Positions 25,132 through 44,423 of a DNA stretch of 64,000 nt are shown here, in pieces. Both the position numbers and the translations under genes were made by a program. The stretch's first letter is position 1. Every line of letters begins with the position of its first letter. This stretch comes from an uncultured Actinomycetota bacterium (GTDB taxonomy: Bacteria > Actinomycetota > Thermoleophilia > RBG-16-64-13): assembly GCA_963796315.1 (NCBI GenBank), contig CAWCLH010000020.1, forward strand, positions 1,121,879 to 1,185,878. The letters run 5' to 3'. The notes under the pieces are model-generated. The model was not told the DNA's origin and did not search any database. It saw only the letters and a program-made list of their open reading frames with translations.

Positions 25132-25166
25132 TCCGTCCGCGCGATCCCAAACCACCAGGAGTCGCC

Positions 25167-27257: not shown

Positions 27258-27284
27258 GAGTACTCAGAGGGGGGACGGACCGTC

Positions 27285-27782: not shown

Positions 27783-27786
27783 GGGG

Positions 27787-28755
27787 GTGGGGGTGAGCGA
27801 TGCCAAGAGCGCAAGCGGCCGGGACGCGGTCCTGCGCTTCTTCGAGATGCTGAATACGGGAGACACCGACCGCCTGGACGAGGTAGCCGACGAAGAGGTA
27901 AGCACCGTGCACCCGCAGACCCGGGAACGCATCTCCGGCCTGGAGGCCAACCTCGAGATGACCCGCGGCTTTCAGCAACTCGGGGGGATCGACATACGCG
28001 AGGAGCGGGAGTTCGTCGGCAGCGGCGGGGAACGCTACCTGCTCACGCCACTCTTCACCATGGTCAAGATCCAAGGCACCGGTGGCCCCTTGGTGGTCAC
28101 CACGAAGATAGGCTATCCGGACGGCTCTGAATGGTACACGACCGGCATCGTGACGTTCCGCCTAGGCAAGATGCTGAAACAGGTGCTCTTCTTTGCGCCG
28201 GAGTTGGAAGCGCCTGACTGGCGCGCCCAATGGGTGGAGACTCTCGAAGCTGAGACCGGTGTCAAGGTGGAGAAGTCCGATGAAGCCGGACCCAGCGGGC
28301 TGAGCCGAGCCGACCGCGACGTGGTAGTGCGCCTGTACGAGCTCATGGATGGGGGCGATTACGAACGTCTCGACGAAGTCTTCCGTACTGACGTCGTGAC
28401 CGAGTACCCACAGTCCGGCGAGCGGGTCAGGGGACTCGAGAACCTCAAGAGCATCATGCGGAACTATCCGGGAGGTCACCCTCGGGTGAGCAAAGCAGAA
28501 CGCGTCCTCGTGGGTGACCGAGGCGAGCATCGGCTGCCCACGACCACCGACTCGACGCTCAAGGTCCACGACGTCGGCGACCGGCTCTTCTCGAGCGTGA
28601 AGACCCGCTACCCCGATGGAAGCGACTGGTACACCGTCTCCCTCTTCGACTTCTCCGAGGGCAAGATCACGAAGCAGGTCGTCTACTTCGCCCCCGTTAT
28701 GCCGGCACCGGAGTGGCGGGCGCGCTGGGTCGTTCCGGAGATCGGCGAGTACTGA
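27787..28755 (+). CDS. Tandem NTF2/SnoaL-like domain protein
   Basis: 322 aa containing two ~150-aa repeats with matching landmarks: RLDEV..ERxxGLEN...YPDGSxWYT...GKxxKQVxxFAPxxxAPxWRAxWV. Confidence 0.5.
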   Translation: MGVSDAKSASGRDAVLRFFEMLNTGDTDRLDEVADEEVSTVHPQTRERISGLEANLEMTRGFQQLGGIDIREEREFVGSGGERYLLTPLFTMVKIQGTGGPLVVTTKIGYPDGSEWYTTGIVTFRLGKMLKQVLFFAPELEAPDWRAQWVETLEAETGVKVEKSDEAGPSGLSRADRDVVVRLYELMDGGDYERLDEVFRTDVVTEYPQSGERVRGLENLKSIMRNYPGGHPRVSKAERVLVGDRGEHRLPTTTDSTLKVHDVGDRLFSSVKTRYPDGSDWYTVSLFDFSEGKITKQVVYFAPVMPAPEWRARWVVPEIGEY

Positions 28756-28866
28756 GATCGCGCCCAGGAGGTAACCGTCCTCGTGGAGCCGTACGGCGAC
28801 CCGGCGGGCATCCTCCGCGTTCGGGGTCCTCGCGCCCCCAATCACAAGTGGCCCTCGCCCAGGCTA

Positions 28867-28883
28867 TACTACTGAACGTAGTA
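28867..28883. promoter_or_regulatory. BlaI-box-like dyad TACTAC-TGAAC-GTAGTA
   Basis: Perfect 6+6 inverted repeat, 112 bp upstream of the response-regulator start (28995). Confidence 0.55.
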
Positions 28884-28994
28884 ACAAGCGCCGGGCGAAG
28901 TACGAGAGGGGTGAGCGCGGGTGACGGACACGGCCACCCAGACGCGGCCCCGCCGTAGCTGAGAGCCCCGACCGCACTCGATCCGGAGCGACCC

Positions 28995-29702
28995 GTGACC
29001 TCCTCTCCCACCTTGCCACCGCACATCCTCGTCGCCGACGACGACGACAACCTTCGCCGGCTCGTGGCCGCGTACCTGCAGCGCGAAGGGTACCGGGTGA
29101 CCGAGGCGGCCGACGGGAACTCGGCCTACCAGCAGGCCGAGTCCGAGCACCCGGACCTGGTGGTCCTGGACGTCATGCTGCCGGGAGCCAGCGGTCTGCA
29201 GATCGCCCGCAAGCTGGGCGGACGCGTCCCTGTGCTCATGCTCACGGCCCTGGGAGAAGAGGGCGACGTGCTGACCGGGTTCGACGCCGGGGCCGACGAC
29301 TACCTGGTCAAGCCCTTCAACCCCAAGGAGCTGGTCGCGCGAGTGCGGGCCATCCTCCGTCGCTCCGGCGCCGATACCGCCGAAGCCGACGAGACCGAAC
29401 GCTCCCTGACCCGGGGCGGTCTGGCCCTCGATCCTCGTTGCCGGGAAGTCACCCTGCGCGGAGCCGTCCTCGAGCTGACCGCCAAGGAGTTCGAGCTTCT
29501 GCGGGCGCTGATGGAGCACCCCGGGTGGGTGTTCAGCCGGGACGAGCTGCTGGAATCGGTTTGGGGCTATCAGATAGCCGGCGAGACGCGGGTGGTGGAC
29601 ACGCACATCGCCAATCTGCGCAAGAAGATCGAGGACGACCCGGCCGAACCTCGCTACATCCGGACGGTCCGAGGCGTCGGGTACAAGTTTCAGGAACCAT
29701 GA
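28995..29702 (+). CDS. OmpR-family response regulator
   Basis: 235 aa with ILVADDDDNLRRL, DLVVLDVMLPG and winged-helix RYIRTVRGVGYKF. Confidence 0.9.
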   Translation: MTSSPTLPPHILVADDDDNLRRLVAAYLQREGYRVTEAADGNSAYQQAESEHPDLVVLDVMLPGASGLQIARKLGGRVPVLMLTALGEEGDVLTGFDAGADDYLVKPFNPKELVARVRAILRRSGADTAEADETERSLTRGGLALDPRCREVTLRGAVLELTAKEFELLRALMEHPGWVFSRDELLESVWGYQIAGETRVVDTHIANLRKKIEDDPAEPRYIRTVRGVGYKFQEP

Positions 29703-30782
29703 GACTTCGCTGGAAACTCTTCCTCACGTACCTCGCGGTGATCGCCGTCATCGTCGGGACCGTCGCGTTGCTGGTCCGAAGCGTGGCCGTAGGCGCGGTC
29801 ACCGGCCACATGGGCGGGTTGGGCGGGATGATGGGGTCCATGCACTCCGATCTGGAGCTCGCCATCGATCGCGGCGTCTCGCAGGCCCTGCTGGTCGCCG
29901 TCGTGGTCGCCGCGGTCGTCGCCGTGGGGGTGAGCTACGTGGTGTCCGGTTGGGTCACCAGGCCCATCCACCGCAGCGCGCAGGCCGCCAGGCGCATCGC
30001 CCGCGGAGAGTACGGGCAGCGGGTGACGGGGGGCTCGGCCGACGAGATCGGCGAGTTCATCGAGGCCTTCAACGAGATGGCCGGAGAGCTCGAGGCGGCG
30101 GAGCAACGGCGGGCGGAGTTGCTCGCCACCATCTCGCACGAGATCCGCACCCCTCTGGCCACCGTCCGCGGCTACATGGACGGTCTGCTCGACGGGGTGG
30201 TGCCGGCCGAGCCCGAGACGTACGTCCTGGTGCGCCGAGAAGCCGACCGCCTCACCCGGCTGGTGGGTGACATCGAGCGCCTCTCGCGCCTGGAGGCCCG
30301 GGCGGAGCCGCTCACCATCACGACCGTCGATATCGCCTCCGTCGCCGAGCAGGTGATCCGCGGGCTGCGGCCGCTGTTCGAGGAGAAAGGGCTGACCCTC
30401 GAGCTCGAGCAGACCTCACCCCGTCCCCTCGTCCAGGCGGATCCGGACAAGGTCATGCAGGTGCTGACCAACCTGCTGACCAACGCCCTGAAGTACACGG
30501 AGAGAGGCGGGGTGGCCATCAAGGTCGAGACGGACGGGCCCGGCTTCGTCCGCGTGACCGCCAGCGACACCGGCGTCGGCATCCCGCCCGACGACCTTCC
30601 CCACGTCTTCGAACGCTTCTACCGGGTGGACAAGTCCCGGTCGAGCGAAGGAGGCGGGGCCGGCATCGGGCTCGCCGTGGTCCGGTCCTTGGTCACCCAG
30701 ATGGGCGGGGAGGTAGCGAATCGACAGTGTGGTCGGCGAGGGGACCACCGCGACGTTCACCCTCCCCCGCAAGCAGGCGTAA
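29699..30782 (+). CDS. HAMP-domain sensor histidine kinase, frameshift near 30719
   Basis: ATG 29699 overlaps the regulator stop. H-box ISHEIRTPLATVRGY. LTNALKYT, DTGVGIPPDDLPHVFERFYRVD, GGAGIGLAVV. After MGGEVA the alternative frame gives IDSVVGEGTTATFTLPRKQA, ending at TAA 30780-30782. Confidence 0.8.
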
Positions 30783-30847
30783 GCCGCAGGCCGTCCACCA
30801 CTCCAGAGGCGACGTCGAACGACCACAGGGACGCGAACAGGAACGGA

Positions 30848-31372
30848 CTAGAGCGTCTGCAGGTACTGCACCAGCGCGCGGACTTCGCTGTCGGTCAGCT
30901 GCCAGAGCGGCATGGGAGCCTTGAGTCTGTCCCCCTCGGGATCGATACCGTCCCTGACCGCGCGAGCGAAGCTCGCTTCATCGAAGGGGGTCTGGGGCTT
31001 GCCCTCGGGGTCCCGAGGCGAGGCCAGAGTGCTCCAACGGATATCGGGCGCGGTGAAACGCCCCATCATCATGTTCACCGTCTGGCCCCGGCCGTCCCGG
31101 CCGTGGCAATCAGCGCAGGCGACGCCTCCGCCCATCATCCCCACCCCGGTGGAGCGTGGGATGGGTCTCCCACTCGCGTCCGTCCCTGTCAGGTAGATGC
31201 GTTCACCGAGTGACCCGTAGGTGCCTTGCCCCGGCGAATGCCAAGGGGAGAAACGGTACAGGGGCCCTCCCGTGGGCAGGGTGAGGGCCAGCAGCACACC
31301 CAAGGCCAGGACGCCGCCGACAATCAGGATGATCCCGGCCGTCAGTGGCCCCCGGCGTCGATAGATGGCCAT
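30848..31372 (-). CDS. Membrane-anchored mono-haem c-type cytochrome
   Basis: 174 aa with an N-terminal TM helix and haem motif CADCHG. Confidence 0.75.
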   Translation of the reverse strand: MAIYRRRGPLTAGIILIVGGVLALGVLLALTLPTGGPLYRFSPWHSPGQGTYGSLGERIYLTGTDASGRPIPRSTGVGMMGGGVACADCHGRDGRGQTVNMMMGRFTAPDIRWSTLASPRDPEGKPQTPFDEASFARAVRDGIDPEGDRLKAPMPLWQLTDSEVRALVQYLQTL

Positions 31373-31381
31373 AGCTCGTTC

Positions 31382-31663
31382 CTATCTCTCCTCCGTCAGG
31401 TCTTGCTTGCGCCGGAGGAACTCTTCCCGATCGATGTCGCCCTTGGCGTAGCGCTCCTCCAGTATCTGCAGCGCACTCGTGGTCGAGGGCGCGGTTGATC
31501 CGGACGATCCAGGGGCCATGGGGTGCGATTCTCCGGCCGATCCGCCACCGCCCCCGATGCCGCGAACCACCAACACCACCCCGACAACGATGGCGGCCAC
31601 GAACAGGAGCGCGAGCACCCAGATGAACACACTGCCCCCGCCACTGTTCCATCCGTCCATCAT
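31382..31663 (-). CDS. SHOCT-domain membrane protein
   Basis: ATG 31663 follows GGAGG. One TM (VFIWVLALLFVAAIVVGVVLVV) and the C-terminal SHOCT-like LQILEERYAKGDIDREEFLRRKQDL. Confidence 0.7.
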   Translation of the reverse strand: MMDGWNSGGGSVFIWVLALLFVAAIVVGVVLVVRGIGGGGGSAGESHPMAPGSSGSTAPSTTSALQILEERYAKGDIDREEFLRRKQDLTEER

Positions 31664-31928
31664 TTCGCCGCCTCCTTGATGGCGTGGCCTCCCGGACGTA
31701 GTGCCTCCCCCGAAAGCAGGTCGGCGCAAACTCGACGTCGAACCGCTCACGTCAGTCGGGTCGACGGCCGACCATCCGACCGAAGCAGTCTCCCAGCCCA
31801 ACGGGCAGCCCTTCACACCACGGACGCCCTGCTTTCTTTGCATGTTCTTCACCTCGCAGAGACACCAACCAGACGAGGACGCCGGAGAATGGTGGTGTCA
31901 GATACGCGACTACCAAGGAGACGACCAC

Positions 31929-32426
31929 GTGAACGACGGACTCAAGCGCGGAGCGGTGATCGCCGCGATAGGCGTTGTCGGCCTACTGGGCATAGCCGCC
32001 GTTACTTCCGGCCCCAACGCGGGCGCAACACCGATCACCAGCGCTGCGGTGGCGCCGTCTCGAGCACAGTCCGCGGAGCTCACCGCGAAGTCGACTGTCG
32101 AGACGACAGCGAGTCCCACGCAACCGGGAGCGACCGATAAGGAGCTGCGCCAGCAGATCGTGGACATGCTCCAAGAGCGCATGGGCCTGTCCGCCAAGGA
32201 GGCCGATCAGCAGGCCGACACGATGGTCCAGCACATGCGCGAGGTCCACGGTAACGAGGCCGGCCAAGTGGCGGCTGCGTGCGGCGATGGTGATGCTCTC
32301 CAGCAAGGCGGGCAGTCTTCGTACGAGGACATGATGGGCGGGGGCACGGGCTCCATGATGGGTTCGTCTACTGGCTCCGTGATGGGCGGCTCCGTCGGCT
32401 CGATGATGGGAAACGATTCGCTGTAG
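31929..32426 (+). CDS. Membrane-anchored protein with a Met/Gly-rich C-terminus
   Basis: In-frame GTG 31929 (the ORF is open from 31701). TM GAVIAAIGVVGLLGIAAV. C-terminus YEDMMGGGTGSMMGSSTGSVMGGSVGSMMGNDSL. Confidence 0.55.
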   Translation: MNDGLKRGAVIAAIGVVGLLGIAAVTSGPNAGATPITSAAVAPSRAQSAELTAKSTVETTASPTQPGATDKELRQQIVDMLQERMGLSAKEADQQADTMVQHMREVHGNEAGQVAAACGDGDALQQGGQSSYEDMMGGGTGSMMGSSTGSVMGGSVGSMMGNDSL

Positions 32427-32436
32427 TCCTCGATAG

Positions 32437-32727
32437 GTGAAGCCTGCCCGGCGAATGAAGAGCCGGGCAGGCTTCCCAGCGCCCCGTCATTGCGCGATCC
32501 GGCCGGGGCGCGGTCGTTTTCTGGGACTCTCGCGGATGTGCACCCACCTGGGCTGCGTCGTCAAGCGGGAGACCAAAGTCGAAGAGTTCCACTGTCCCTG
32601 CCACGCGGGCGTCTTCTCCTCCACCGGGGAGGTGCTGTCTGGTCCGCCGCTTCGCCCCCTACCCCGACTGAAGCTGAGCGTGGAGGGGAACGACATGTGG
32701 GCGGACGGCTGGCAGCCGACGGACTGA
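32437..32727 (+). CDS. Rieske [2Fe-2S] domain ORF (bc/b6f-type motifs), probably N-terminally truncated
   Basis: 96 aa with CTHLGC...CPCHAG. The first ~13 codons are encoded by the terminator-like hairpin, and there is no TM anchor or N-terminal beta strands. Confidence 0.45.
   Translation: MKPARRMKSRAGFPAPRHCAIRPGRGRFLGLSRMCTHLGCVVKRETKVEEFHCPCHAGVFSSTGEVLSGPPLRPLPRLKLSVEGNDMWADGWQPTD
32439..32475. terminator. Perfect 14-bp stem hairpin, no U tract
   Basis: GAAGCCTGCCCGGC-gaatgaaga-GCCGGGCAGGCTTC, starting 13 nt after the stop of the 31929..32426 gene. Confidence 0.5.
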
Positions 32728-32737
32728 CAGGCGTCGG

Positions 32738-33340
32738 CTAACGGGCGGCGGCAGCCAGAGCGACCAGGTCCTCAACGGTAGTGGCCCCGACCTTGGTCGT
32801 GACGATCCTGCCCTGAGCGTCGATCGCCACCGCGGTCGGCACCCCGCTCACGAAGTAGTCGCCGGCGATCGAGCCGGCGGGGTCTTGGAGGATAGGAAGG
32901 TGGTATCCGCCCTCGCGCATGAAGGCTTCCACGTCGGCGCGCGCATCCTGGATATCGATGAGAAGAAGCTGGGCGTCCTGCTTGTGCTCTCGATAGAACC
33001 TATCGAGTGCCGGGGTCTCCCCCCGGCAGGTGGGTCACCAGCTGGCCCAGAAGATCAACAGTAACGGTCTTCCCCGGTACACCTCGAGGGAGACCGGCTT
33101 GCCCTCGAAGGTGATGCCGCTGAAGGTGGGAGCCGCTCGCAGAGCCGAGACGGCCCCGTCACTCGAAGCCGCGCCCTCCTGCGTCCCCGCCGGCCGGCCC
33201 CGGCTCGTCGAGAACCAGAGGCCGAGAACGAGCACCAGCAGCAGGACGGCCGCCGTGATCGCCGCGGTCCCACGAGCGGACGACCGGGGAGCGGCGGTGG
33301 CTCCGTCGGCTTCGCGCTCGTCGCGACCGTCCTCCTGCAT
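32738..33340 (-). CDS. Second TlpA/ResA-like thioredoxin-fold protein with in-frame TGA (33035-33037): W-U-P-T-C
   Basis: ORFs 33035..33388 and 32738..32932 share a frame. Hand translation gives ...RPLLLIFWASW-TGA-PTCRGETPALDRFYREHKQDAQLLLIDIQ..GVPTAVAIDAQG. One TM anchor. ATG 33340 overlaps the ABC ATPase stop (TGATG). Confidence 0.8.
33009..33027 (-). promoter_or_regulatory. Candidate SECIS-like hairpin downstream of the UGA in the second TlpA-like gene
   Basis: mRNA GCCGGGG-GGAGA-CCCCGGC: perfect 7-bp stem with a 5-nt loop, starting 7 nt after the UGA. Confidence 0.5.
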
Positions 33341-34068
33341 CACGGCGCCAGCGCGAACGTCTCCCGACCTTCGCCCGAGAGCTCGCACGCGGCGGGTCGG
33401 TCGTCACAGGTGATGCGGCCGTCGCGGATCTGGATCAAGCGGTCCACGTTGGCGGTGGATTCCGGGTTGTGGGTCACCATGATCACCGCGTGGCCGCGGT
33501 CGGCCAGCTCGCGGAGCAGGATGAGGATCTGCTGCCCGGTCGCCTGGTCCAGGCTGCCCACCGGTTCGTCGGCCAGGATGACGGGCGGGTCGTTCACGAC
33601 CGCGCGGGCGATCGCCACGCGGCCCTGCTCCCCTCCGGAGAGCTCGGAGGGTACGCGCCGGGCCTTCCGCTCGTCCAATCCCACCCGGCAGAGCGTGTCC
33701 AGGGCGCGGTCGGCCTTGCCCGGGTCCTTGAGGATGGCCAACGGCAGCATGACGTTCTCCACCGCGGACAGGTAGGGGATCAGCTCCAGCTGCTGGAACA
33801 CGAACCCGATGTACTCGCGGCGCAGATCCGCCTGACGCTCCTGACTGAGCGCGTAGACGTCGATGCCATCCACCAGCAACCGCCCGGTGGTGGGCGGGTT
33901 CATCGCCCCCAGGATGGAGAGGAGCGTGGTCTTCCCGGACCCGGAGGGACCCATGATGGCGACGTACTCGCCCCGCTCGATATCCAGGCTGACCCGATCC
34001 AAGGCGGTGACCCGGGCTTCGCCTTCCCCGTAGGAGCGGCTCACGTCTTCGATGCGTACCAGGGACAC
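33340..34068 (-). CDS. ABC transporter ATP-binding protein (MacB/LolD type)
   Basis: 242 aa with GPSGSGKTTLLSILG, LSGGEQGRVAIARA and ILADEPVGSLD. Confidence 0.9.
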   Translation of the reverse strand: MSLVRIEDVSRSYGEGEARVTALDRVSLDIERGEYVAIMGPSGSGKTTLLSILGAMNPPTTGRLLVDGIDVYALSQERQADLRREYIGFVFQQLELIPYLSAVENVMLPLAILKDPGKADRALDTLCRVGLDERKARRVPSELSGGEQGRVAIARAVVNDPPVILADEPVGSLDQATGQQILILLRELADRGHAVIMVTHNPESTANVDRLIQIRDGRITCDDRPAACELSGEGRETFALAP

Positions 34069-34081
34069 GTCCTTACCTCCG

Positions 34082-35239
34082 TCAGATGTACTTGAGAGCG
34101 GTCGCCGGGTCCATGTTGGCCGCCCGGCGGGCCGGGTAGAGAGCGGCCAGCATCCCGACCAGGTAGGCCAGCGCGATACCGGCCAGGATCACCAGCGGAT
34201 TGGGCGCCACGGTCAAGGAGAGGCTGGGCACCAGCGACGGCACCACCAGCCCGGCGGCGACGCCGACCAGGATCCCCGTCAGCGCTCCCCCGCCGCTCAG
34301 GAGGGCCGACTCGAGCAGGATGAGCTTTGCGATGTGCCGTTGCTTGTACCCGACGGCGCGGAAGACGCCGATCTCCTTCTGACGTTCCTTCACCGAGGTC
34401 AGCATGGTGATCATCACCACCAACCCTGAGATCAGCACGATCAGTAGGGTGATCGCCAGCCCAAAGCCGGCCAGTGAGGAGTTCGCCCGATTGGTGAACT
34501 CGATGCTCTTCTTCACCGAGACGACGGAGGACCCGGGGATGCTGCGCTCGATCTCTTTGCTCAGGCGGTCGACGGCGGTGGTGCTGGCAGCCGTGACCTC
34601 GATCAGGTTGACCTCGCCCCGGTGTCCGGTGAGCTCGGCGAGCGCGGGCAGGGGCAGGATGACCAGGTTGTCTTCCTCGCCGCCGATCTCCTGCAGCACG
34701 CCGGCGACGGTGAAGCGCCGACCGTCCAGCTCGATCGACTTCCCCGCATCCAGGCCGAGGGTGTTCCGGACGTTGAGGCCCAGCAGCACCTCGTCGGCTG
34801 CCTGGGGCAGCCGGCCTTCCACCCGCCACCAGAGCTTGACCTTGAGGCTCTCCGCCAGGTCGGTGCCCATGGCCAGGAAAGAGCGCTCTCCCACCTTCAC
34901 CGGTTGCAGCAGCACCGGGATGGCGGCGGCGACGTCGGCCTTGGACGGCACCGCCCGGATCCGATCCACGTCGGCCAGCTTCAGGTACCGCACCTCCCCG
35001 GTCCCCGCGCCGCCGACGTCCACCCCGCCGTAGCTCAGGCTGAGCTCGGTCGTCGCCGGGGTGACCACCAGGTTGGAGCCGAACTTGCTCAGCTTGTCGT
35101 CCATGGTGGCCCGAAGGGAGAAGACCAGGGAGAGGACCAGCACGAAAGCGGCCACCGCCACCGAGAGTCCGAGCACGACCAGGACGGCCTTGCCCTTGCG
35201 GCGGCGCAGATTACCGAGGGCGATGGTGCGAAGGTCCAT
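34082..35239 (-). CDS. FtsX-like ABC permease
   Basis: 385 aa with N-terminal IALGNLRRRKGKA, a large periplasmic loop, and a C-terminal 3-TM FtsX domain. Confidence 0.85.
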   Translation of the reverse strand: MDLRTIALGNLRRRKGKAVLVVLGLSVAVAAFVLVLSLVFSLRATMDDKLSKFGSNLVVTPATTELSLSYGGVDVGGAGTGEVRYLKLADVDRIRAVPSKADVAAAIPVLLQPVKVGERSFLAMGTDLAESLKVKLWWRVEGRLPQAADEVLLGLNVRNTLGLDAGKSIELDGRRFTVAGVLQEIGGEEDNLVILPLPALAELTGHRGEVNLIEVTAASTTAVDRLSKEIERSIPGSSVVSVKKSIEFTNRANSSLAGFGLAITLLIVLISGLVVMITMLTSVKERQKEIGVFRAVGYKQRHIAKLILLESALLSGGGALTGILVGVAAGLVVPSLVPSLSLTVAPNPLVILAGIALAYLVGMLAALYPARRAANMDPATALKYI

Positions 35240-35242
35240 CGG

Positions 35243-36400
35243 CTACACCGGCCTCATGGCGAGGGTAGGGCTGAGACGCGCCGCCTGCCAGGCAGGATAG
35301 AGACTGGCCAGCAGGACCACTCCCAGCGAGGCACCCAGCGCGACGCCCAGGCCGGCAGGGCTGGGGGCCAGCGTCTCGCTCACCCCCGCCACCACGCGGG
35401 CCAACGGCCCCGCACCCAGGGTCGCGAGCAGGAGCCCCCCGATCCCCCCCGCGAAGGCCAGCGCCAAATTCTCCACCAGGATGATGGAAAAGATGTGCTT
35501 GCGCCGGTAGCCGATCGCCCGGAAGATGCCGATCTCGCCGCGTCGGTCACGCACCCCTGCCAGCGTCGAGGAGAGCACGATCAGGCAGCCCACCAGGATC
35601 ATCAGCCCGGACAGGACGGCGCTGAACAGACGGAACTGATCGATCAAAAGCCGTCGTGACTCCACGGCTTTCAGCAGGGCTGAGACGCGGGCGGTGGGTA
35701 GAGCGGTCGAGATCTGAGCGTTGATCAGCTCGATGGGGCAGGTGCTGCAGAAGGCGGATACCTCGATCAGGCTGAGCTCGTCACCTCGCTGCCAGAGCCG
35801 CTGGGTGGTGGCCAGATCCAGGTAGAGCAGATCGTCCTCTTGGGTACCGGTCTGCTCCAGCAGACCGGCCACCGTGAAGCGTTCCCCCTTCAGGGTGACC
35901 GTGTCGCCGCTCTTCAACCCGAGCAGAGCCGCGGCTCGACTCCCGACCAGGACGTCGTGGTCCTTCTGGGGGCGTGCTCCATCGATGTGCCACCATTTCT
36001 TCAAGCCCAGCTCTTCTCTCCAGTCGACGCCGGCCGCCAGCACCCGCCGGCCGCCGACCTCGGCAGCCACGATCAACTCCGGGGCGACCCGGTTGATGTT
36101 CTGCTTGTTCTTGATCCCCCGGATCTTGGCGACGTCGGCCAGGTGGAGAGGCGTGACGTCGTAGGTCAGTCCGCCCAGGCTCACGCCCCCGTAGGTCAGG
36201 GGAAGGTCCTTGCTCCGCGGTACCACCACGATGTTCGCGCCGTAGTCGTCCACCTTGTTCGCCAGATCGCGCTCGGCGCTGCGGGTGACCAGGTAGAGCA
36301 CGCTCACGATGCCCACGGTGGCGACGATGACCAGCAGCAGGAGAGCGCTGCGGGACAGGTGCTGGCGCATGTTCCGAAGAGCGATATGCGAGAGACGCAT
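35243..36400 (-). CDS. FtsX-like ABC permease (second copy)
   Basis: ATG 36400 gives MRLSHIALRNMRQHLSRS. Same architecture as the neighbouring permease. Confidence 0.85.
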   Translation of the reverse strand: MRLSHIALRNMRQHLSRSALLLLVIVATVGIVSVLYLVTRSAERDLANKVDDYGANIVVVPRSKDLPLTYGGVSLGGLTYDVTPLHLADVAKIRGIKNKQNINRVAPELIVAAEVGGRRVLAAGVDWREELGLKKWWHIDGARPQKDHDVLVGSRAAALLGLKSGDTVTLKGERFTVAGLLEQTGTQEDDLLYLDLATTQRLWQRGDELSLIEVSAFCSTCPIELINAQISTALPTARVSALLKAVESRRLLIDQFRLFSAVLSGLMILVGCLIVLSSTLAGVRDRRGEIGIFRAIGYRRKHIFSIILVENLALAFAGGIGGLLLATLGAGPLARVVAGVSETLAPSPAGLGVALGASLGVVLLASLYPAWQAARLSPTLAMRPV

Positions 36401-36521
36401 GGAGCGGGCTGTCCTTCCGGGAGCGGGTCCGCCCGGGACGGCCGGCCGACCGGGCACTGCGTGGTGACCCCCGCCTGCGGCCCGCCCAGTGCGGGCCGCA
36501 GGCGTTCAAAGGGTCAGAACG

Positions 36522-37214
36522 CTACTGCCGGGGGGTCCAAGCCTCCAGGTCGGCGGTGGCCACCACGATCTTGCCGTTCTGGTTCTGCGCCTTGATCGGG
36601 TCCGGCGGGAAGTCGGTGCAGCCGCCGGAGATGCCCTGGAGCGTGTTCAGGTCCCACTTGGTGAAACAGGTGTCGCAGACCAGGGTGTTGCCCTCGATGT
36701 GGAAGCTGTTGCTGCGGCAGGGCTCGCAGAACGATGACGCCACCACCAGGTTCCCGCTGGGCGCGACGTACGAGATCAGGGGCAGCTTGCCGCCGGTCAG
36801 ACTCTGCCATTCGCCCGGGAACGGATTGGTCCGCTGGTACTTCATCATGACCAGCTTGCTCTGCTGCACGTCGGCAGCGGAGAAGCTGGCCGAGGTGCCG
36901 CTGACGGCCAGGTCGATCGGCGTCTGGGTGATCGTGCCGCCCGCAGAGCCGCCGGTCGATGAGGCGGTGGTCACGTCGCTGACCTGCACGCCGCTCGAAA
37001 CCTGCTTGCCCGACTGCACCTTCTGGTAGCCCGCCATCCCCAGGAAGGCGACGACCGCGATGGCGGTGACGACGATGATGACCCGCTGCAGGGGGAACTT
37101 GCCCGCCTCCTCGAAGCGTTGCCGCTTGCTATCGAGGTTGTCCAGATGCGCGGGCTGGCTAGTGCGCGGACGGGCGGCCGGAGGCTTCTTCTGCTGACCT
37201 TTGGATCGACTCAC
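36522..37214 (-). CDS. DUF2318-like Cys-rich membrane-anchored protein
   Basis: GTG 37214 follows AAGGGGAGAG. One TM (VIIVVTAIAVVAFLGMAGY). C-terminal domain SSFCEPCRSNSFHIEGNTLVCDTCFTKWDL..GGCTDFPP. Confidence 0.65.
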   Translation of the reverse strand: MSRSKGQQKKPPAARPRTSQPAHLDNLDSKRQRFEEAGKFPLQRVIIVVTAIAVVAFLGMAGYQKVQSGKQVSSGVQVSDVTTASSTGGSAGGTITQTPIDLAVSGTSASFSAADVQQSKLVMMKYQRTNPFPGEWQSLTGGKLPLISYVAPSGNLVVASSFCEPCRSNSFHIEGNTLVCDTCFTKWDLNTLQGISGGCTDFPPDPIKAQNQNGKIVVATADLEAWTPRQ

Positions 37215-37299: not shown

Positions 37300-37318
37300 C
37301 TACTACGCCACATAGTAG
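37300..37318. promoter_or_regulatory. BlaI-box-like dyad CTACTAC-GCCAC-ATAGTAG
   Basis: 6 of 7 positions pair. Lies 86-104 bp upstream of the DUF2318 start. Confidence 0.5.
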
Positions 37319-37369: not shown

Positions 37370-38396
37370 TCAGTGGGTGTCGCCGGCGGGGAGACGCGTG
37401 ACCGAGTGGGTGCCGTCGTGGCAGGTGTGGGTCGGTGCCTCGCCGGGGAGCGTCACGTCGGTGAAAGCGAGGGCGCTGCCCGTGAAGGCGAACAGGAGGA
37501 CGGTCACCACCAAGACGGTCCCCGACGAGGTACCGCCGTGAGGTGACCGCCACTTGGCCGAACACGAGTCCCCGGATCCGCTCCACGACGTCGCCCTCGT
37601 CGGCGAAAGCCAGGCCGGGCGAGGTGGTGCCGGGAAGCAGGGCGCGGGCGAACTTCTGCAGGCTGGAGGCGACCACGAGCGGGTCTCCGGTCCGCCGCCT
37701 GGCGAAGTCGTCGGCGGCCAGTTCCTGTGCCCGGCGCAACCGGACGACGGCCGGACGGACGCCGGGCAGCAGCGCGAAGGTCGCGACAAAGGTCCGCGCG
37801 ACCAACAGGATCAGGTTGTCCCGAGCGATAAGATGTCCCTCCTCGTGGGCGAAGACCGCCTGCACCTCCTGCTCATCCAAGCCGGACAGCAGACCGGACG
37901 AGATCACGACCCGGGGCCGCAGGGTGCCCATCGTGTACGAACGCGGGACCTCGTCGTCCACCACATAGGTCCGCCCGCGGAGACCGGGAGGCAGCGGACC
38001 TCCGTACAGGACCCCCTCTTCGAGGGCACGGGCCACGTAGCGGGAAGAGGAGTGGACTTGGCTGAGCGCTGCATAGACCGCGACGGCGATCAGCCCGAGA
38101 AGGATCCCCCCCATGAAGAAGGAGAAGGTGGCGTTGGCCCACCCGGGAAGGGCTCGCTGGCAGGCGACGGCGACCTTGCAGACCAGTCCGGTCCGATCGA
38201 GGACGGCATGGGGCAGGTAGCGCAGGAACACCGCGACCAGCAGCAGCAACGTGGCCAGAGCGGCGCCGGAGATGGACGCGAGGTAGGTCAGGACAAGCGC
38301 GCGGGGAGCCAGCCGAGACTCCAGGAACCGGCGGACCAGCCAGGGCCCGGCCAGCAGGAGGGCGTAGGTCAGCGCGAGGGTCAGGCCGACGATGAC
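37370..38396 (-). CDS. M56-family (BlaR1-like) membrane metalloprotease without a penicillin-binding sensor domain; frameshift at the C run 37520-37523; start unresolved
   Basis: HEEGH zinc motif in QAVFAHEEGHLIARDN. After SRRYLVG the alternative frame gives TM TVLVVTVLLFAFTGSALAF and the tail TDVTLPGEAPTHTCHDGTHSVTRLPAGDTH (stop 37370-37372). TM1-like coding (VIVGLTLALTYALLLAGPWLV) extends to ~38396 with no in-frame ATG/GTG/TTG. Confidence 0.7.
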
Positions 38397-38812
38397 TCCC
38401 GCTCCTGGCGCATCTGCTGGATGATGTCGGCGAGGACGTCGAGTTGGCCCGCATCCTCGTTGGTGAGACTCTCCACGAAGTGAGTGAGGACCGGCCGGTT
38501 GACCGAACCGAACAGCCCGCTGACGACGGTCTTGACCACTCCGGTACAGAAGGCGTCTCGAGTCTGCACCGGCTCGTAGATGTAGGCCCGGCCTTCCTGA
38601 CGGCGGCGCAGCAGCGCTTTCTCCGCCAAGCGACTCATCACGGTCATCACCGTGGTGTAGGCGATCTCACGCCGTTCCAGCAGGCACTCGTGCACCTCCC
38701 GGACCGACGCCGATCCGAGATCCCACATGCACTCCATGATCTCGGCCTCCAGGTCGCCGAGGACCTGCCTCAGCCCCTGGCTCCCGATATTCAGGCTCAA
38801 CGGTTCGTCCAT
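38381..38812 (-). CDS. blaI: BlaI/MecI/CopY-family winged-helix repressor
   Basis: ATG 38812 follows AGGAGG. LGDLEAEIMECMWDLGSASVREVHECLLERREIAYTTVMTVMSRLAEKALLRRRQEGRAYIYEP. No C-terminal CxC copper motif. Confidence 0.85.
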   Translation of the reverse strand: MDEPLSLNIGSQGLRQVLGDLEAEIMECMWDLGSASVREVHECLLERREIAYTTVMTVMSRLAEKALLRRRQEGRAYIYEPVQTRDAFCTGVVKTVVSGLFGSVNRPVLTHFVESLTNEDAGQLDVLADIIQQMRQERESSSA

Positions 38813-38841: not shown

Positions 38842-38858
38842 TACTACCAAACGTAGTA
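38842..38858. promoter_or_regulatory. BlaI-box-like dyad TACTAC-CAAAC-GTAGTA (probable autoregulatory site)
   Basis: Perfect 6+6 inverted repeat, 30-46 bp upstream of the blaI-like start codon. Confidence 0.6.
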
Positions 38859-39084: not shown

Positions 39085-39831
39085 CTATCGCATCAGGTGT
39101 TGATGACGAAGACGCTCGATCCTTGAGGTCAGATCCATCTGGCGGTAGCGCACGATCAAGAGGTACGCGTAGACGAGCGTGATGGCGAACAGCGAGAACA
39201 TCAGCACGAGCGTCATCCGCGAATCCAGGTTGATGGCGTTCTCGGTGATGACGGTGGGGTGGATGGTCCGCCACCAACGCACCGACATGAAGACGATGGG
39301 TACGTCCACCCACCCCACGATGCCGAAGACCGCCGCCACCCGGGCCGTCTTGTGCCCGGGCTGCGACGCGGACCGCAGCATGAGGTAGGCCACGTAGATG
39401 AACCACAGCACCAGGGTGGTGGTCAGACGCGGGTCCCACGTCCAGTAGGCGCCCCAGATGGGCCGGGCCCACAGGGGACCGGTGATCAGGGTGACGGTGG
39501 TGAAGACGACGCCGATCTCGGCCGACGCGGCCGCGATCCGGTCGTAGCGCAGGTCCTTCTTGATCAGGTAGAGGATGCTCGCGATGAACACCACCGTGAA
39601 GGAGGGCCCCAGGGCGACCCAGGCGCTGGGGACGTGGAAGTAGAAGATGCGCTGCACGTCGCCCATCTGGGCCTCGGTCGGCGCGTAGAGCAGCGCCCCG
39701 TAGAGGGCGATGACGACGGACACCAGGGCCGCGACGCCCAGAGCGTCCAGCCAGAGTGAGCCGCCGGTGAGGCCGCGGGTCCCGGTCGAGGGCAGGCCGC
39801 GGTCGAGGGTCTGGTCGTGTGCCATGCTCAT
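39085..39831 (-). CDS. ccmC: Haem exporter protein CcmC
   Basis: 248 aa with the WWD motif WGAYWTWDPRLTTTLVLW. Confidence 0.9.
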   Translation of the reverse strand: MSMAHDQTLDRGLPSTGTRGLTGGSLWLDALGVAALVSVVIALYGALLYAPTEAQMGDVQRIFYFHVPSAWVALGPSFTVVFIASILYLIKKDLRYDRIAAASAEIGVVFTTVTLITGPLWARPIWGAYWTWDPRLTTTLVLWFIYVAYLMLRSASQPGHKTARVAAVFGIVGWVDVPIVFMSVRWWRTIHPTVITENAINLDSRMTLVLMFSLFAITLVYAYLLIVRYRQMDLTSRIERLRHQHLMR

Positions 39832-40505
39832 TCCTCGAGGACGAAGTCGAAGGTCATGATCGAGAGTGCCAGGAAGATCACGTCATAGACTACCAGCAGT
39901 AGGAGCCAGGAGGAGCCCTCGCCCAGCGAGCGCCCGTCCAGCACGTGCCCCGACGACTTGGCGGCCGCCAGGATCACCGGCACCATCACCGGGAACAGCA
40001 GGATGGACAAGATGACGTCACGGGCCTTGAGCCCCACCGACACTGCGGAGAACAGGGTGCCCACGCTGCTGAACCCGATGGTGGCCAGCACCAGGATCAA
40101 GCCCAGCGGGGCCACGGTGCGGGCCAGGTCGACGTTGTAGAGCACCGCGAAGAAGAAGAACACCACGACGCCCATCAGCAGCAGGAAGACGAAGTTGCCC
40201 AGGAACTTGCCCAGGTAGATCACGCTGCGGTCCACCGGGCAGAGCAGCAGCCCCTGCAGGCAGTCGTTCTCCTTCTCCGAGGCGAAGGAACGGTTGAGGC
40301 CCAGGATGCCGGCGAAGGTGAACGCGGCCCAGAGCACCCCCGGCTTGACCAGGTTCTCCTCCCGCAGGCCCGGCTCGATCCCGAAGTTGAAGATCAGGAT
40401 GACCAGGAAGCCGAAGAGAAGCATGGAGAAGACCATCTCGCGGGTGCGCAACTCCCCCACGATGTCCTTCCAGGCGATGGCCCACGCCCGGTTCAGGAAT
40501 CCCAT
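39828..40505 (-). CDS. ccmB: Haem exporter permease CcmB
   Basis: ATG 40505 gives MGFLNRAWAIAWKDIVGELRTREMV. Six TM helices. Overlaps ccmA and ccmC. Confidence 0.85.
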   Translation of the reverse strand: MGFLNRAWAIAWKDIVGELRTREMVFSMLLFGFLVILIFNFGIEPGLREENLVKPGVLWAAFTFAGILGLNRSFASEKENDCLQGLLLCPVDRSVIYLGKFLGNFVFLLLMGVVVFFFFAVLYNVDLARTVAPLGLILVLATIGFSSVGTLFSAVSVGLKARDVILSILLFPVMVPVILAAAKSSGHVLDGRSLGEGSSWLLLLVVYDVIFLALSIMTFDFVLEE

Positions 40506-41264
40506 CGGTAGTCCTTCCCCACGTACTCGAAGTACGTCTGCTCGAAGGCCGCCCGGTCGATCTGGCCGATAGGCCGACGGAACACGGTCTTCCCCAGCAC
40601 CTGAATGGACACCTCGTCGCACATCTCGAGCCCCTGCTCCAGGTTATGCGTGGTCAGGACGATGCTCCGTTCCCCCGTGTGCAGGGTCTCGAGGACGCTG
40701 CGCAGCATGCGGGAGGCATGCTGGTCCAGGCCGGTGTAGGGCTCGTCCAGGAACATGATGTCCGGTTCGTGCAGCAGGGCGCGCGCGATGGACAGGCGTT
40801 GCTGCATGCCCCGAGAGTACGTGGCCACCCGGTCCTCCATGCGGCCGTAGAGCCCGACCTCCTCCAGCAGCTTCGTCGCCCGGTCTTCCAGGTCGGCGAC
40901 GCCGTACATCGTGCCGTAGAAGGTCAGGTTCTCGAAGGCGGAGAGGCTCGGGATAGAGGTAGGTATTGTGCGAGATGACCCCGATGCGACGGCGGAGGAT
41001 GTCCGCTCCCTGCACCACGTCGGTCCCCGCCAGCAGCACCTGACCTTCGGTGGGCTTGATCTGGGTCGAGAGGACCTTGATCAGCGTGGTCTTGCCGGCA
41101 CCGTTCGGTCCGAAGATGGTGAGGAACTTACCCTGCTCCAGCTGAAGGTCCAGACCGCGAAGCGCCGCGAAATGGCCAAAGTACTTCCATAGGCCCCGGA
41201 CCTCGATGGCGAGGTCCGGGGTGGGTGGGCCGGGCTCCAGATTGTCAGGGGCAGCGACGGCCAA
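40493..41264 (-). CDS. ccmA: Haem exporter ATPase CcmA, frameshift near 40949-40952
   Basis: TTG 41264 lies 2 nt after the upstream stop. FGPNGAGKTTLIKVL. After ISHNTYLYP the alternative frame gives SLSAFENLTFYGTMYGVADLE...YSRGMQQRLSIARALL..MFLDEPYTGLD. Confidence 0.8.
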
Positions 41265-41266
41265 GG

Positions 41267-41879
41267 TCAGGCGGTCACCTCGGCGCCGCAGCCTCCGCAG
41301 AAGCGCGCCCCCGCCTTCAAGGGGGCGCCGCACTCGTCGCACGCGGCCCCCGCGTGCCCGTTGGGAGAGGTCTCCATCACGGCGACGGCCGACTGCTCCA
41401 GCAGGTGGTCGCCGCAGCCTGCGCAGAAGCGGGCCCCCGCCGGGTTGAGGTGGTCGCAGGCCAGGCAGACCAGCTGCCCGTCGTCCGCCGGGGCAGCTCG
41501 CCGCGGACGCTTCGGAGACGCGGCCGCTTGCTTCTGCGCGACAGCCGGCCGAGGCTGCCGCGCCGCGGTCTGCGTGGCCCGGGGCCGGCTCTTCGCCTTG
41601 GGCGCGGGCCGCTCGGCTTCGGCGATCGCTTCCAGGATCTCCACGGCGTTGGCCCGGTACTTGAGCGTCGAGCTCCCGGAAGTCGGACTCGGACAGTTTG
41701 CCCGTCCGGAAGTCGAACTCGAGCTCCTTGAGCGCCGAGTAGGTCGACTCCTTCCGCCGGTGCAGCTCCTCGACCTCCTCGGGAAGCTCCATCTCTTCTT
41801 CGTCGGTCCACTGGCGCAGCAGCGGATAGCCTACGAAGGCCACTGCCGCCAGCGCCATGAGGATCTTGATCAGCATCAC
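41267..41879 (-). CDS. CcmI-like N-terminal module fused to a double zinc ribbon, frameshift near 41668-41671
   Basis: MMLIKILMALAAVAFVGYPLL...YSALKELEFDFRTGKLSESDFREL. After the shift, TLKYRANAVEILEAI...LVCLACDHLNPAGARFCAGCG...ACDECGAPLKAGARFCGGCG. Confidence 0.6.
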
Positions 41880-41922
41880 GGTCGTTCGTCTCCTCGGTCT
41901 CGCCGTCGCGGACGCCTGGGTC

Positions 41923-42419
41923 TCAGTCGAAGTCCTTCAGCTCGTCCTCCATCTTGTGGACGAGCTCATCGCGCACCGGGGACTGCAGCTCCACCTGTCC
42001 CTCGGGGGTCGCGGCCACGAGCGCCGCGCGGCGCTTGGCCCAGCCGCCGATCAGAAAGTAGATGGCGATACCGCCGCCGATCAGGACGGCGAAGGGGATC
42101 AGCCAGGCGGCCAGGTTGAAGCCGCTCTTGGTGGGCGCGGCCAGGACACGGTCGCCGTATTTCGTGACGTACGAGTCGATCACCTGCTGAGGCGTCTCGC
42201 CCGCCGCCAGCTGGGCGTGGACGTCCTGCTTCGCAGGGATGCCCCACTCGCAGTTCTGGTGCGGGCACTCCTTGAGCACCGCGTTGCAGCCGCACAGGCA
42301 CATGATCTTCGAGGTCACCGACGAATCCGCAGGCGCCGCCTGTCGCCGGCGCGGTCCCCAGAAGGCCGGCGCCGAGCGCTAGGAGGAGCACCGCCGGGCC
42401 GAGCCACAGGCGCCGAAAA

Positions 42420-42430: not shown

Positions 42431-44423
<1,993 letters not shown>

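Follow-up and report, generated by a model that had tools for sequence, protein, structure and literature searches.

A DUF2318-FtsX-ABC module that is very likely a stand-alone relative of the Fet accessory genes, and its possible action on thiols outside the cell

What do the accessory genes of the Fet iron-uptake systems do when they stand apart from the iron permease? The question is raised by a locus in a 64,000-nt stretch of DNA from an uncultured Actinomycetota bacterium of the Thermoleophilia (assembly GCA_963796315.1, contig CAWCLH010000020.1, positions 1,121,879 to 1,185,878 of the forward strand), which was analysed at its full length and is called the window here. Five co-directional genes on its minus strand, at 32738-37214, encode a DUF2318 protein, two permeases (FtsX1 and FtsX2), an ATP-binding cassette (ABC) ATPase and a thioredoxin (Trx1). 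In Campylobacter jejuni, the fetMP-fetABCDEF cluster encodes FetA, with eight transmembrane (TM) helices and periplasmic DUF2318 and YHS domains, the permeases FetB and FetC, the ATPase FetD, and the thioredoxins FetE and FetF (PMC6083913, PMC10783030). Under iron limitation, growth suffers when any one of fetA to fetD is deleted or when fetE and fetF are deleted together; the last gene of canonical Fet clusters is one for a thioredoxin or a flavin mononucleotide (FMN)-binding protein (PMC6083913, PMC10783030). DUF2318 genes were described in 2018 as mapping 'almost always' to FetMP clusters (PMC6083913). What FetABCDEF contributes is an acknowledged gap, which extends to what the ABC transporter acts on and what DUF2318 does (PMC10783030).

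The first gene of the module (36522-37214, GTG start) encodes a short-form, FtrD-like DUF2318 protein of 230 aa. It is followed by two genes for MacB-type permeases of 385 aa each with MacB_PCD and FtsX domains, FtsX1 (35243-36400) and FtsX2 (34082-35239), by the gene for an ABC ATPase of the MacB/LolD type (33340-34068; ABC_tran), and by the gene for Trx1, a membrane-anchored ResA/TlpA-like thioredoxin of 200 aa (32738-33340; AhpC-TSA/Redoxin, E ~1e-19). The gap after the DUF2318 gene measures 121 nt, the next two 3 nt and 13 nt, and the ABC stop codon and the Trx1 start codon share 1 nt (TGATG). Directly upstream of the module lie genes for BlaI and an M56/M48 protease, and beyond these the genes for CcmC, CcmB, CcmA, a zinc-ribbon protein, CcmH, CcmF and CcmE. 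An earlier, sequence-only reading of this DNA had described the five genes in this order and within this span, their tight coupling with the long first gap and the single overlap, and their place directly downstream of the BlaI/M56 pair and the ccm genes; the genes found, the measured spacings and the Pfam matches agree with all of this. The same gene order, including an in-frame TGA in the thioredoxin gene, recurs in independent metagenome-assembled genomes (MAGs) whose DUF2318 proteins are only 40-48% identical, so the arrangement is not due to chance.

The product of the first gene is a true member of PF10080, as had been proposed, with a profile score of 66.6 bits against a cut-off of 26.3 (E 2.3e-18). 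To relate the module to Fet systems, we used as partner the fetMP-fetABCDE(F) cluster of Escherichia coli VR50 plasmid pVR50B (NZ_CP011136), traced via the supplement of PMC6083913. FetD is 49% identical to the module ATPase (E 5e-62), FetB and FetC are 22-26% identical to the two permeases over their full length (E 1e-12 to 1e-22), FetE is 22% identical to Trx1 (E 2e-12), and FetA matches the DUF2318 protein with 26% identity over 97 aa and has the Cys motif in common with it. Since similarity is measurable for every gene, the resemblance to Fet is one of homology and not just of labels; judged from these alignments, the module genes are homologous one for one to FetA-E. The likeness to Campylobacter cj1660-cj1665 that had been proposed in the sequence-only reading was thereby confirmed, in gene order and gene by gene, against the E. 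coli proteins. Shared with FetABCDEF (Cj1660-Cj1665, or CJJ81176_1651-1656) are the succession of a DUF2318 protein, two homologous permeases, an ATPase and a TlpA-family thioredoxin, and the DUF2318 motif CxxC-x13-CxxC-x14/15-C, which the module protein retains.

The iron permease itself is missing. FetM (FTR1) and FetP (P19) gave no tblastn match at E <= 1 in the window or in 81 related loci, no scanned open reading frame (ORF) of the window matched PF03239 or PF10634, and no REGLE-type motif is present. The claim that the module occurs without P19 and FTR1 thus stands for the window and for the related loci. A tblastn search of PLSDB plasmids with the short DUF2318 protein yielded no match, because the short form is too diverged from the long form. 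The module differs from FetABCDEF in further ways, and these are what is new relative to Fet. It stands alone, with neither FTR1/FetM nor P19/FetP here and in 80 related loci. Its DUF2318 protein is short, with one TM helix and no YHS match in Pfam, whereas FetA has eight TM helices and a YHS domain. FtsX1 carries an invariant CxxCP, which, on inspection of the sequences, is absent from E. coli FetB and FetC. A putative BlaI-type operator, together with the BlaI/M56 pair, may take the place of a Fur box, the thioredoxin very probably uses selenocysteine (Sec), and the genomic context is ccm rather than iron uptake. The parts of the module belong to known families, and the module as a whole is very likely a stand-alone, short-form relative of the Fet accessory genes.

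To determine which of these genes belong together, we surveyed the neighbourhoods of related DUF2318 genes. A profile scan with one genome per species gave 79 loci, to which one Thermoleophilia locus and the window were added; ORFs were called in all loci and clustered, recurrent clusters were annotated, and counts are given over 80 loci. An FtsX permease was found in 73 loci and an ABC ATPase in 72, with one permease in 40 loci and two in 32. The conserved core is the triad of DUF2318, FtsX and ABC proteins, and it spans four phyla (Actinomycetota, Bacillota, Thermodesulfobacteriota/Syntrophia, and Ignavibacteriota/Bacteroidota). The other genes vary with the lineage. In class A, the Thermoleophilia type, the order is ccmE-F-H-DZR-ccmA-B-C, blaI, M56, DUF2318, FtsX, FtsX, ABC, Trx(TGA), ccdA, fdhD; this class comprises eight genome loci, the window and further metagenome contigs. 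Class B, from other Actinomycetota and from Bacillota, reads blaI-M56-DUF2318-FtsX-ABC(-FtsX), and BlaI occurs in 23 loci in all. Class C (n=15; Syntrophia and other deltaproteobacterial loci) reads Rrf2-CysK-HcyBio-NIL/Fer4-MnmA-PP-loop-ThiI(-BioB)-DUF2318-FtsX-ABC. In these loci (L036, L038-L046, L052, L062, L063, L065 and L074) the triad forms the distal part of an Rrf2-led sulfur-insertion operon. Class D, from Ignavibacteriota and Bacteroidota, begins with CusC, CusB (with HMBD and YHS domains), CusA, a P-II-like protein, an HMBD protein and DUF1573, and continues with a zinc-ribbon/CcmH-like protein, DUF2318-FtsX-ABC and a YHS protein. Class E (n=5) consists of a second DUF2318 copy directly after CcmF-CcmH-DZR, without the transporter, in MAGs that also hold a class A or B locus.

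The most frequent functional neighbours of the triad are CcmH-type proteins (32/80 loci). Copper-related genes of any kind lie near it in 23/80 loci, namely CusCBA with HMBD and YHS domains, small HMBD and YHS proteins, and a CopA-type ATPase with cupredoxin; the CopA-type ATPase is nearby in ten loci and is accompanied by a cupredoxin in four of them. CcdA was found in eight loci, small Rieske proteins in five and polyferredoxin-like proteins in four, and FMN proteins recur. The neighbourhood comparison had been set in advance as a refutation test for the linkage of the module to thioredoxin and ccm, and it divided the claim: the linkage is conserved within the lineage and not across the family. 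Only seven of the 80 loci contain a thioredoxin, and this association is lineage-specific. The ccm core genes accompany the triad in 17 loci; their synteny with the module is conserved in at least nine, and ccm genes also lie near the triad in the Bacillota loci L037, L047 and L048. The proposed tie to cytochrome maturation therefore holds for this lineage, in synteny and in a putative operator common to ccm, blaI and the module, and fails as a general property of the family.

The triad carries conserved cysteines on two of its proteins. The short-form DUF2318 family comprises at least 349 protein clusters, all of about 190-270 aa, and its alignment shows the invariant motif CEPC-x13-CxxC-x15-C...PP, that is, five cysteines and a PP pair. 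In the protein, a cytoplasmic motif, KRQRFEEAGKFP, is followed by one TM helix and then by the extracytoplasmic domain. The cytoplasmic motif, L-D-x-K-R-x-R-F-E-E-A-G-K-F-P, lies N-terminal to the TM helix and is strongly conserved, which suggests a cytoplasmic contact. In the AlphaFold 2 model, the predicted local distance difference test (pLDDT) value exceeds 90 for residues 100-230, and the best fold matches in the PDB are Rieske-type ferredoxins (target TM-score 0.60-0.65, E ~1e-4). The extracytoplasmic domain thus models as a Rieske-like fold, in which, going by the spacing of the motif, the two CxxC knuckles would occupy the place of the Rieske CxH and CxxH loops. Export of a cofactor-loaded domain by the twin-arginine (Tat) pathway was considered and ruled out, as an RRx-hydrophobic motif is present in only 14/157 DUF2318 proteins; for lack of a conserved Tat motif, a pre-assembled Fe-S cofactor in this domain is unlikely. 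Straight after the DUF2318 stop codon, inside the 121-nt gap, lies a strong, GC-rich hairpin with a stem of about 14 bp (36472-36504, minus strand), and similar hairpins follow the DUF2318 genes of L004, L022 and other related loci. It may act as a partial terminator or as a transcript stabiliser that sets the stoichiometry, with more DUF2318 protein than transporter.

The second set of cysteines is found in FtsX1. Its extracytoplasmic motif EVSAFC218-S-T-C221-P-I-E is encoded at 35735-35749, and the family motif E-V-[SA]-A-x-C-x-x-C-P-[IV]-E recurs in the first permease at each of the 73 loci with FtsX, in four phyla, as well as in 120/120 of the best database homologues. These are usually the sole two cysteines of the first permease. 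CxxCP is absent from the second permease in all loci, and FtsX2 of the window has no cysteine at all. In the AlphaFold 2 model of FtsX1 (pLDDT 82), the motif lies between a strand (211-216) and a helix (223-233) of the membrane-proximal external subdomain, and the stalk helix and TM2 follow about 20 residues later. Thioredoxin active sites and HMA copper sites likewise have a CxxC at the N-terminus of a helix.

The sequences of the permeases place them among the type VII ABC proteins. Their solved relatives are MacB, LolC/E/F, YbbP, YtrF and BceB, and the ATPase is best matched by MacB and LolD. Like MacB, LolCDE, FtsEX, HrtBA, BceAB and YbbAP, the module has four-TM FtsX domains with a large external domain between TM1 and TM2, a LolD/MacB-like ATPase as a separate polypeptide and, as in LolC/LolE, two different permeases. 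It differs from these systems in its obligatory partner with a Cys-rich, Rieske-like ectodomain, in the CxxCP of one permease, and in having no adaptor or outer-membrane partner in its monoderm hosts. Given this common MacB-type architecture, mechanotransmission is the default expectation for the module.

Next to the module, the window encodes a winged-helix repressor of the BlaI/CopY family (38381-38812, minus strand; Penicillinase_R, PF03965, E 5e-30) and a BlaR1-like M56/M48 membrane metalloprotease (37332 to ~38400, minus strand). The likely blaI start is the ATG at 38812, which is preceded by AGGAGG. The best NCBIfam match of BlaI is CopY/TcrY (TIGR02698), at 57.3 bits against a cut-off of 121.95, and its C-terminus (...QQMRQERESSSA) contains no Cys, so that the CxCxxxxCxC metal site of CopY is missing; membership of the CopY family was ruled out on both grounds. 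The M56 protein has about 305-355 aa, an HEEGH motif and an invariant Cys near TM1. As in BlaI/BlaR1 systems, the Penicillinase_R repressor has an M56 HExxH membrane protease as its partner, and its own operon and the putative target operons are preceded by a palindrome; the differences are the putative regulon, made up of ccm, the DUF2318/ABC module and a two-component system, and the lack of a penicillin-binding sensor domain in the M56 protein, for which Pfam gave only M48 and M56 protease-domain matches. Such sensor-less BlaIR pairs are the majority and control functions other than antibiotic resistance, as in CenIR of Clostridioides difficile, which acts on the envelope (PMC13492132), and mycobacterial BlaI represses the ATP synthase operon (PMC12565901). 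Homology of the M56 protein extends about 50 codons upstream of the first ATG, GTG or TTG codon (TTG at 38249), through a frame (38250-38400, minus strand) that overlaps the end of blaI and contains no canonical start. The protein may use a non-canonical start codon, CTG or ATC, or the assembly may be in error here.

The palindrome TACTA-N7-TAGTA, mostly in the form TACTAC-N5-GTAGTA, occurs in four exact copies in the window, compared with 0.0 in shuffled sequences, and we take it as the putative BlaI operator. Copy 1 (TACTACTCCGCGTAGTA, 46264-46280) lies between a zinc-ribbon gene and the c28-ccmE-F-H-DZR-ccmABC run, at the head of the latter, and the same position is occupied in L001, L011 and L012. 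Copy 2 (TACTACGTTTGGTAGTA on the minus strand, 38842-38858) lies about 30 nt upstream of the likely blaI start. Copy 3 (TACTATGTGGCGTAGTA on the minus strand, 37301-37317) is situated directly upstream of the DUF2318 gene, between its start and the M56 stop, and overlaps a promoter-like TTGCCC-18-TAGAAT (37326-37297). Copy 4 (28867-28883) precedes the plus-strand genes for an OmpR-type response regulator (28995-29702) and a histidine kinase (29699-30760). In nearly every Actinomycetota or Bacillota locus that contains BlaI, the palindrome is found upstream of blaI and of the DUF2318 gene. Exact copies lie within 350 nt upstream of the DUF2318 gene in 21/47 Actinomycetota/Bacillota loci versus 0/31 loci of other phyla, and the palindrome also precedes ccm genes in L001, L005, L006, L011, L012, L047 and L048. 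From this distribution we predict that ccm, blaI-M56, the module and the two-component system form one shared regulon, which we consider fairly probable. The common putative operator is the strongest support for the link between the module and cytochrome maturation. The short external loop of the histidine kinase is rich in Met and His (GHMGGLGGMMGSMH), and a Met-rich protein (31701-32426, ...MMGGGTGSMMGSSTGSVMGGSVGSMMG) is encoded next to the module; these motifs suggest copper sensing or binding.

The last gene of the module contains an in-frame TGA (33035-33037) at the first Cys of the WCxxC motif (FWASW-U-PTC). A second gene of this kind, for the lipoprotein Trx2 (22840-23340, minus strand; W-U-P-T-C, TGA at 23140-23142), encodes a protein 50% identical to Trx1 and has the gene of the thiol-disulfide transporter CcdA (DsbD_TM; 22099-22824, minus strand) directly downstream. 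All six independent class A thioredoxin genes have TGA at the same codon. Metagenomes were searched with a pattern that fixed the W-U-P-x-C context and left the stem free; it gave 23 matches, two of them by chance (L086 and L092). The 21 true metagenome genes, whose products are down to 39-45% identical to Trx1, bring the genes with TGA at W-U-P-x-C to 29, the other eight being from genomes. In these 29 genes a near-invariant hairpin follows the UGA, and it is the same in 21/21 of the metagenome genes. In Trx1 this SECIS-like (selenocysteine insertion sequence-like) element, CUCGAUAGGUUCUAUCGAG (32989-33007, minus strand), lies 27 nt after the UGA, is 19 nt long with an 8-bp stem and a GUU loop, and folds with -31.8 kcal/mol (z -4.2). 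The Trx2 hairpin CUCGGUAGGUUCUACCGAG (23094-23112) shows a compensatory A-U to G-C change, and one orthologue shows a wobble-compatible change from U-A to U-G. Identity at third codon positions peaks at 0.95-0.97 at the UGA and the hairpin, compared with a baseline of 0.55-0.75. The stem is built from GAT, AGG, TAT and CGA codons, which are presumably rare in this genome, whose genes have about 85% G+C at third codon positions; their use would argue for selection on the RNA.

A true stop codon, and hence a split or pseudogene thioredoxin, was ruled out, as the TGA is conserved in 29 genes with coding conservation on both sides. ARAGORN found no tRNA, and no tRNA-Sec, in the window. Rfam at the gathering threshold gave no match in the whole window, and there is no curated family for the thioredoxin hairpin. 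In all likelihood the TGA is decoded as Sec: the alignment of the UGA with a catalytic Cys in 29 genes, the conserved hairpin and the compensatory change sustain the Sec thioredoxin that the sequence-only reading had named. UxxC selenoproteins of the thioredoxin fold have been described as 'Prx-like thiol:disulfide oxidoreductase' and 'thiol:disulfide interchange protein' (PMC1976440). Trx1 and Trx2 are like these in having Sec for the N-terminal Cys, a stem-loop after the UGA and Cys-containing homologues, and differ in their high-GC actinomycetote hosts, their ccm/CcdA context and the unusually invariant 19-nt hairpin. They also differ from NCBIfam NF041054 ('ResA-like WAxxUGC') in the motif W-U-P-x-C, and the score is 39 bits with a cut-off of 300.

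The best matches of the Sec-thioredoxin are ResA and StoA, then DsbE/CcmG, then TlpA. Like the thioredoxins of ResA/CcdA (System II), CcmG(DsbE)/DsbD (System I), TlpA and Scs systems, Trx1 and Trx2 are membrane-anchored or lipoprotein members of the TlpA fold with the motif W-[C/U]-P-x-C, which is WCPTC in E. coli DsbE. Further likenesses are the adjacent CcdA gene (of Trx2 and the orthologues) and the ccm context; the differences are that Sec replaces the first catalytic Cys and that there are two paralogues, one of them translationally coupled to an ABC ATPase away from CcdA. On the metagenome contigs, CcdA directly follows the Sec-thioredoxin in ten cases and an ABC gene precedes it in seven. 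The window's ccm cluster holds no other CcmG candidate, and Trx2-ccdA-fdhD-hexapeptide-MinD keeps the class A synteny. Being coupled more tightly to CcdA than to the ABC gene, the Sec-thioredoxin is best read, on this genomic evidence, as the ResA/CcmG equivalent, with an ancestral role in the ResA/CcmG-CcdA thiol-reduction arm. Trx1 has a TM anchor and adjoins the ABC gene and not CcdA; that this module-linked copy was retained suggests that the module uses a thioredoxin.

Taking these results together, we favour the explanation that the module is built on a stand-alone Fet-like triad that works as an ATP-driven extracytoplasmic thiol machine, its ligand probably being Cu(I), and we give this explanation as a whole a probability of about 45%. 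By analogy with type VII systems, the permease would not carry a substrate through the membrane; ATP hydrolysis would instead move the external domains. The movement would act on a thiolate site made by the CxxCP of FtsX1 and the DUF2318 cysteines, and this composite site would capture a thiophilic ligand, most likely Cu(I), and then release it or hand it over. Removal of the ligand would shield the Ccm thiol relay and apocytochromes at their CXXCH thiols; the alternative would be its delivery to respiratory enzymes. The Sec-thioredoxins would receive reducing equivalents from CcdA and in turn would keep the cysteines of the module and of apocytochromes reduced. Upon an envelope signal, M56 would cleave BlaI and thereby induce ccm jointly with the module.

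What speaks for copper as the ligand is that the triad occurs in Cu-efflux, CopA, HMBD, YHS and cupredoxin contexts, that BlaI has a CopY-like affinity (below the cut-off) and that the module has Met/His-rich neighbours in the window. Periplasmic thiols and cytochrome c assembly are known targets of copper, against which thioredoxins of the Scs and TlpA types act. The copper site of P19, a copper-binding protein, points in the same direction. So does the YHS domain carried by FetA (PMC10783030). The Scs system likewise ties TlpA-type thioredoxins to copper stress (PMC10907172). We nevertheless hold the copper-handling mechanism itself only tentatively, at clearly less than even odds, as several points weigh against it or against the explanation built on it. 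The genetics of fetABCDEF in C. jejuni tie the relatives of the module to iron-limited growth and not to copper (PMC6083913, PMC10783030). The 15 Syntrophia-type loci with their sulfur-assimilation genes are not accounted for by copper. The CcmH-type proteins in 32/80 loci and the Rieske, polyferredoxin-like and FMN neighbours fit a redox relay at least equally well. The match of BlaI to CopY falls short of the family cut-off and lacks the C-terminal Cys motif, the operator remains a putative one derived from sequence, and the Sec-decoding genes selA, selB, selC and selD are not in the window.

Such a relay is almost as good an explanation as the copper model, and we regard it as doubtful when taken for itself. 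It would make the Rieske-like domain of DUF2318 and the CxxC of FtsX1 redox centres, either disulfide/dithiol pairs or a metal centre, that pass reducing equivalents to CcmH, CcmF-bound heme or apocytochrome, with ATP hydrolysis gating or driving the hand-over. The source of the equivalents would be either CcdA with the Sec-thioredoxin or a low-molecular-weight thiol that reaches the site through the ABC transporter, and in Fet systems the acceptor would be Fe(III)/P19. The modelled fold of DUF2318 and the thioredoxin-like position of the FtsX1 CxxC at the N-terminus of a helix are consistent with this, and the commonest neighbours of the triad (CcmH-type proteins, CcdA, Rieske and polyferredoxin-like proteins) are thiol oxidoreductases or electron carriers. 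Genes for cysteine and homocysteine synthesis are co-operonic with the triad in Syntrophia. The relay also suits the terminal thioredoxin or FMN protein of Fet clusters, for which a relay of reducing power through FetBCD and FetA has been proposed (PMC6083913, PMC10783030). However, type VII ABC transporters are not known for moving reductants or electrons, there is no Tat signal to export a cofactor-loaded domain, and most triad loci lack a nearby CcdA/DsbD or thioredoxin as electron source. A relay would also leave the Cu-efflux context of about 20 Ignavibacteriota/Bacteroidota loci without explanation.

A narrower role, as a dedicated accessory of cytochrome c maturation, is improbable. The triad would then act on heme or apocytochrome on the outer side of the membrane, for example by extracting surplus heme in the manner of HrtBA or by holding CXXCH motifs, and would be a true Ccm component in monoderm Actinomycetota. 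This idea draws on the position of the module inside the ccm supercluster in at least nine loci, the paralogous DUF2318 gene directly after CcmF-CcmH-DZR in five, the putative operator in common with ccm, the three Bacillota loci with ccm near the triad (L037, L047 and L048), and the Cys-Pro dipeptide of FtsX1, which may resemble heme-regulatory motifs. It is opposed by the small share of loci (17/80) in which ccm core genes accompany the triad, none being adjacent in Ignavibacteriota and Syntrophia, and by the ccm set of the window, which is complete without the triad (CcmABC, E, F, H, a thioredoxin and CcdA). Campylobacter uses System II for cytochrome c maturation, and Fet-cluster relatives of the triad are found in such System II users. 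The sulfur-assimilation context in Syntrophia is explained by neither the copper model, the redox relay nor a role in ccm.

A generic envelope-stress or antimicrobial efflux pump of the MacB/BceAB type under BlaI/BlaR1 control, with the adjacency of ccm and thioredoxin genes incidental, is very improbable: BlaI/BlaR1 pairs classically govern beta-lactam resistance, and the permeases and ATPase do score against MacB, LolCDE, DevCA and bacteriocin exporters, but the M56 protein has no penicillin-binding domain, like most BlaIR-like pairs, which have other roles (PMC13492132), an antibiotic pump would need neither an invariant CxxCP nor an obligatory five-Cys DUF2318 partner, the same putative operator precedes ccm, and the ABC and thioredoxin genes are translationally coupled.

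The System I ccm cluster upstream of the module (39085-46182, minus strand) was assigned by Pfam matches and synteny. It comprises c28, which encodes an unknown protein, and the genes for CcmE (44527-45057), CcmF (42420-44441), a CcmH-type protein (41923-42318), the DZR zinc-ribbon protein (41267-41644), CcmA (~40493-41230), CcmB (39828-40622) and CcmC (39085-39831). CcmA is split over two frames at about 40900-40950, with ABC_tran profile positions 1-73 in one and 82-136 in the other; possible causes are a sequencing error, decay to a pseudogene and recoding. CcmH-family proteins encoded next to DUF2318 genes (41923-42318 in the window, 367-1308 in L069, and 14 similar loci) lack the classical LRCxxC and have a five-Cys motif, which reads C-x-C-G-C-x7-C-x4-C in the window protein. 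In Ignavibacteriota such proteins contain the motif twice, as C-S-C-G-T-C...C-x-C, and are fused to a zinc ribbon. The gene at 41923-42318 was also considered as an extra selenoprotein gene, and this was ruled out, as it contains no in-frame TGA and encodes a Cys-rich CxCGC instead.

Elsewhere in the window, an insert of about 9.4 kb (about 23400-32737) separates the two Sec-thioredoxin genes and breaks the synteny of related genomes. It contains an Asp23-like gene, genes for a FAD-linked oxidase, SnoaL-like proteins, the OmpR/histidine kinase system and a SHOCT protein, a cytochrome c gene (30848-31372) and a short Rieske-like ORF (32437-32727). The fdhD gene (20953-21813) adjoins ccdA, and a molybdopterin oxidoreductase gene of the formate dehydrogenase type (61787-64000, minus strand), which runs out of the window, has no in-frame TGA in its visible part. 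A second redox cluster (49533-52991, minus strand) consists of a Pyr_redox_2 and Thioredoxin_3 fusion protein (49533-51416), a CcmH-family protein with the motif PCCW (51417-52058) and a thioredoxin (52515-52991). The first 19 kb carry chromosomal housekeeping genes (purB, purD, dnaB with an intein, and rplI), as does the remainder outside the locus; the DnaB replicative helicase is encoded at 10502-12352 (minus strand), with an Intein_splicing domain at residues 415-549. The G+C content of the window is about 68%, and its nearest relatives are MAGs labelled Gaiellales, Thermoleophilia or Actinomycetes.

What these findings would mean for the Fet family depends on how far the favoured explanation is carried. 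In its broadest form, the triad would be a previously unrecognised, widespread ATP-driven extracytoplasmic thiolate machine for metal or redox loading or stripping, a member of a BlaI/M56-controlled respiratory-biogenesis regulon in Actinomycetota and Bacillota, with the same activity in Fet systems; we consider it unlikely that all of this holds. If it did, mechanotransmission would serve to put a thiophilic metal, Cu(I), or a redox equivalent onto a composite Cys site or to take it off, and this activity, rather than iron transport, would be the contribution of FetABCD to uptake by P19 and FTR1. It would give a function to the four 'extra' membrane proteins of Fet systems. The locus separates a FetABCD-type function from FTR1 and P19 and provides precise residues and a predicted regulon with which to approach it: the invariant CxxCP, the five invariant cysteines on a Rieske-like ectodomain, the cytoplasmic juxtamembrane motif, and the predicted operator that connects System I cytochrome c maturation with the module. 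Further gains are a sensor-less BlaI/M56 pair, whose predicted regulon concerns respiratory biogenesis, and a clean, deeply conserved bacterial SECIS-like element in a ResA/CcmG-type thioredoxin of high-GC Actinomycetota, which raises the question of why selenium is used in the thiol-reduction arm of cytochrome c maturation. As the core of DUF2318 and a MacB-type ABC transporter is found in four phyla without FTR1 or P19 nearby, its function is not specific to that iron permease, and the helper genes probably have their own job in handling thiols or metals outside the cell.

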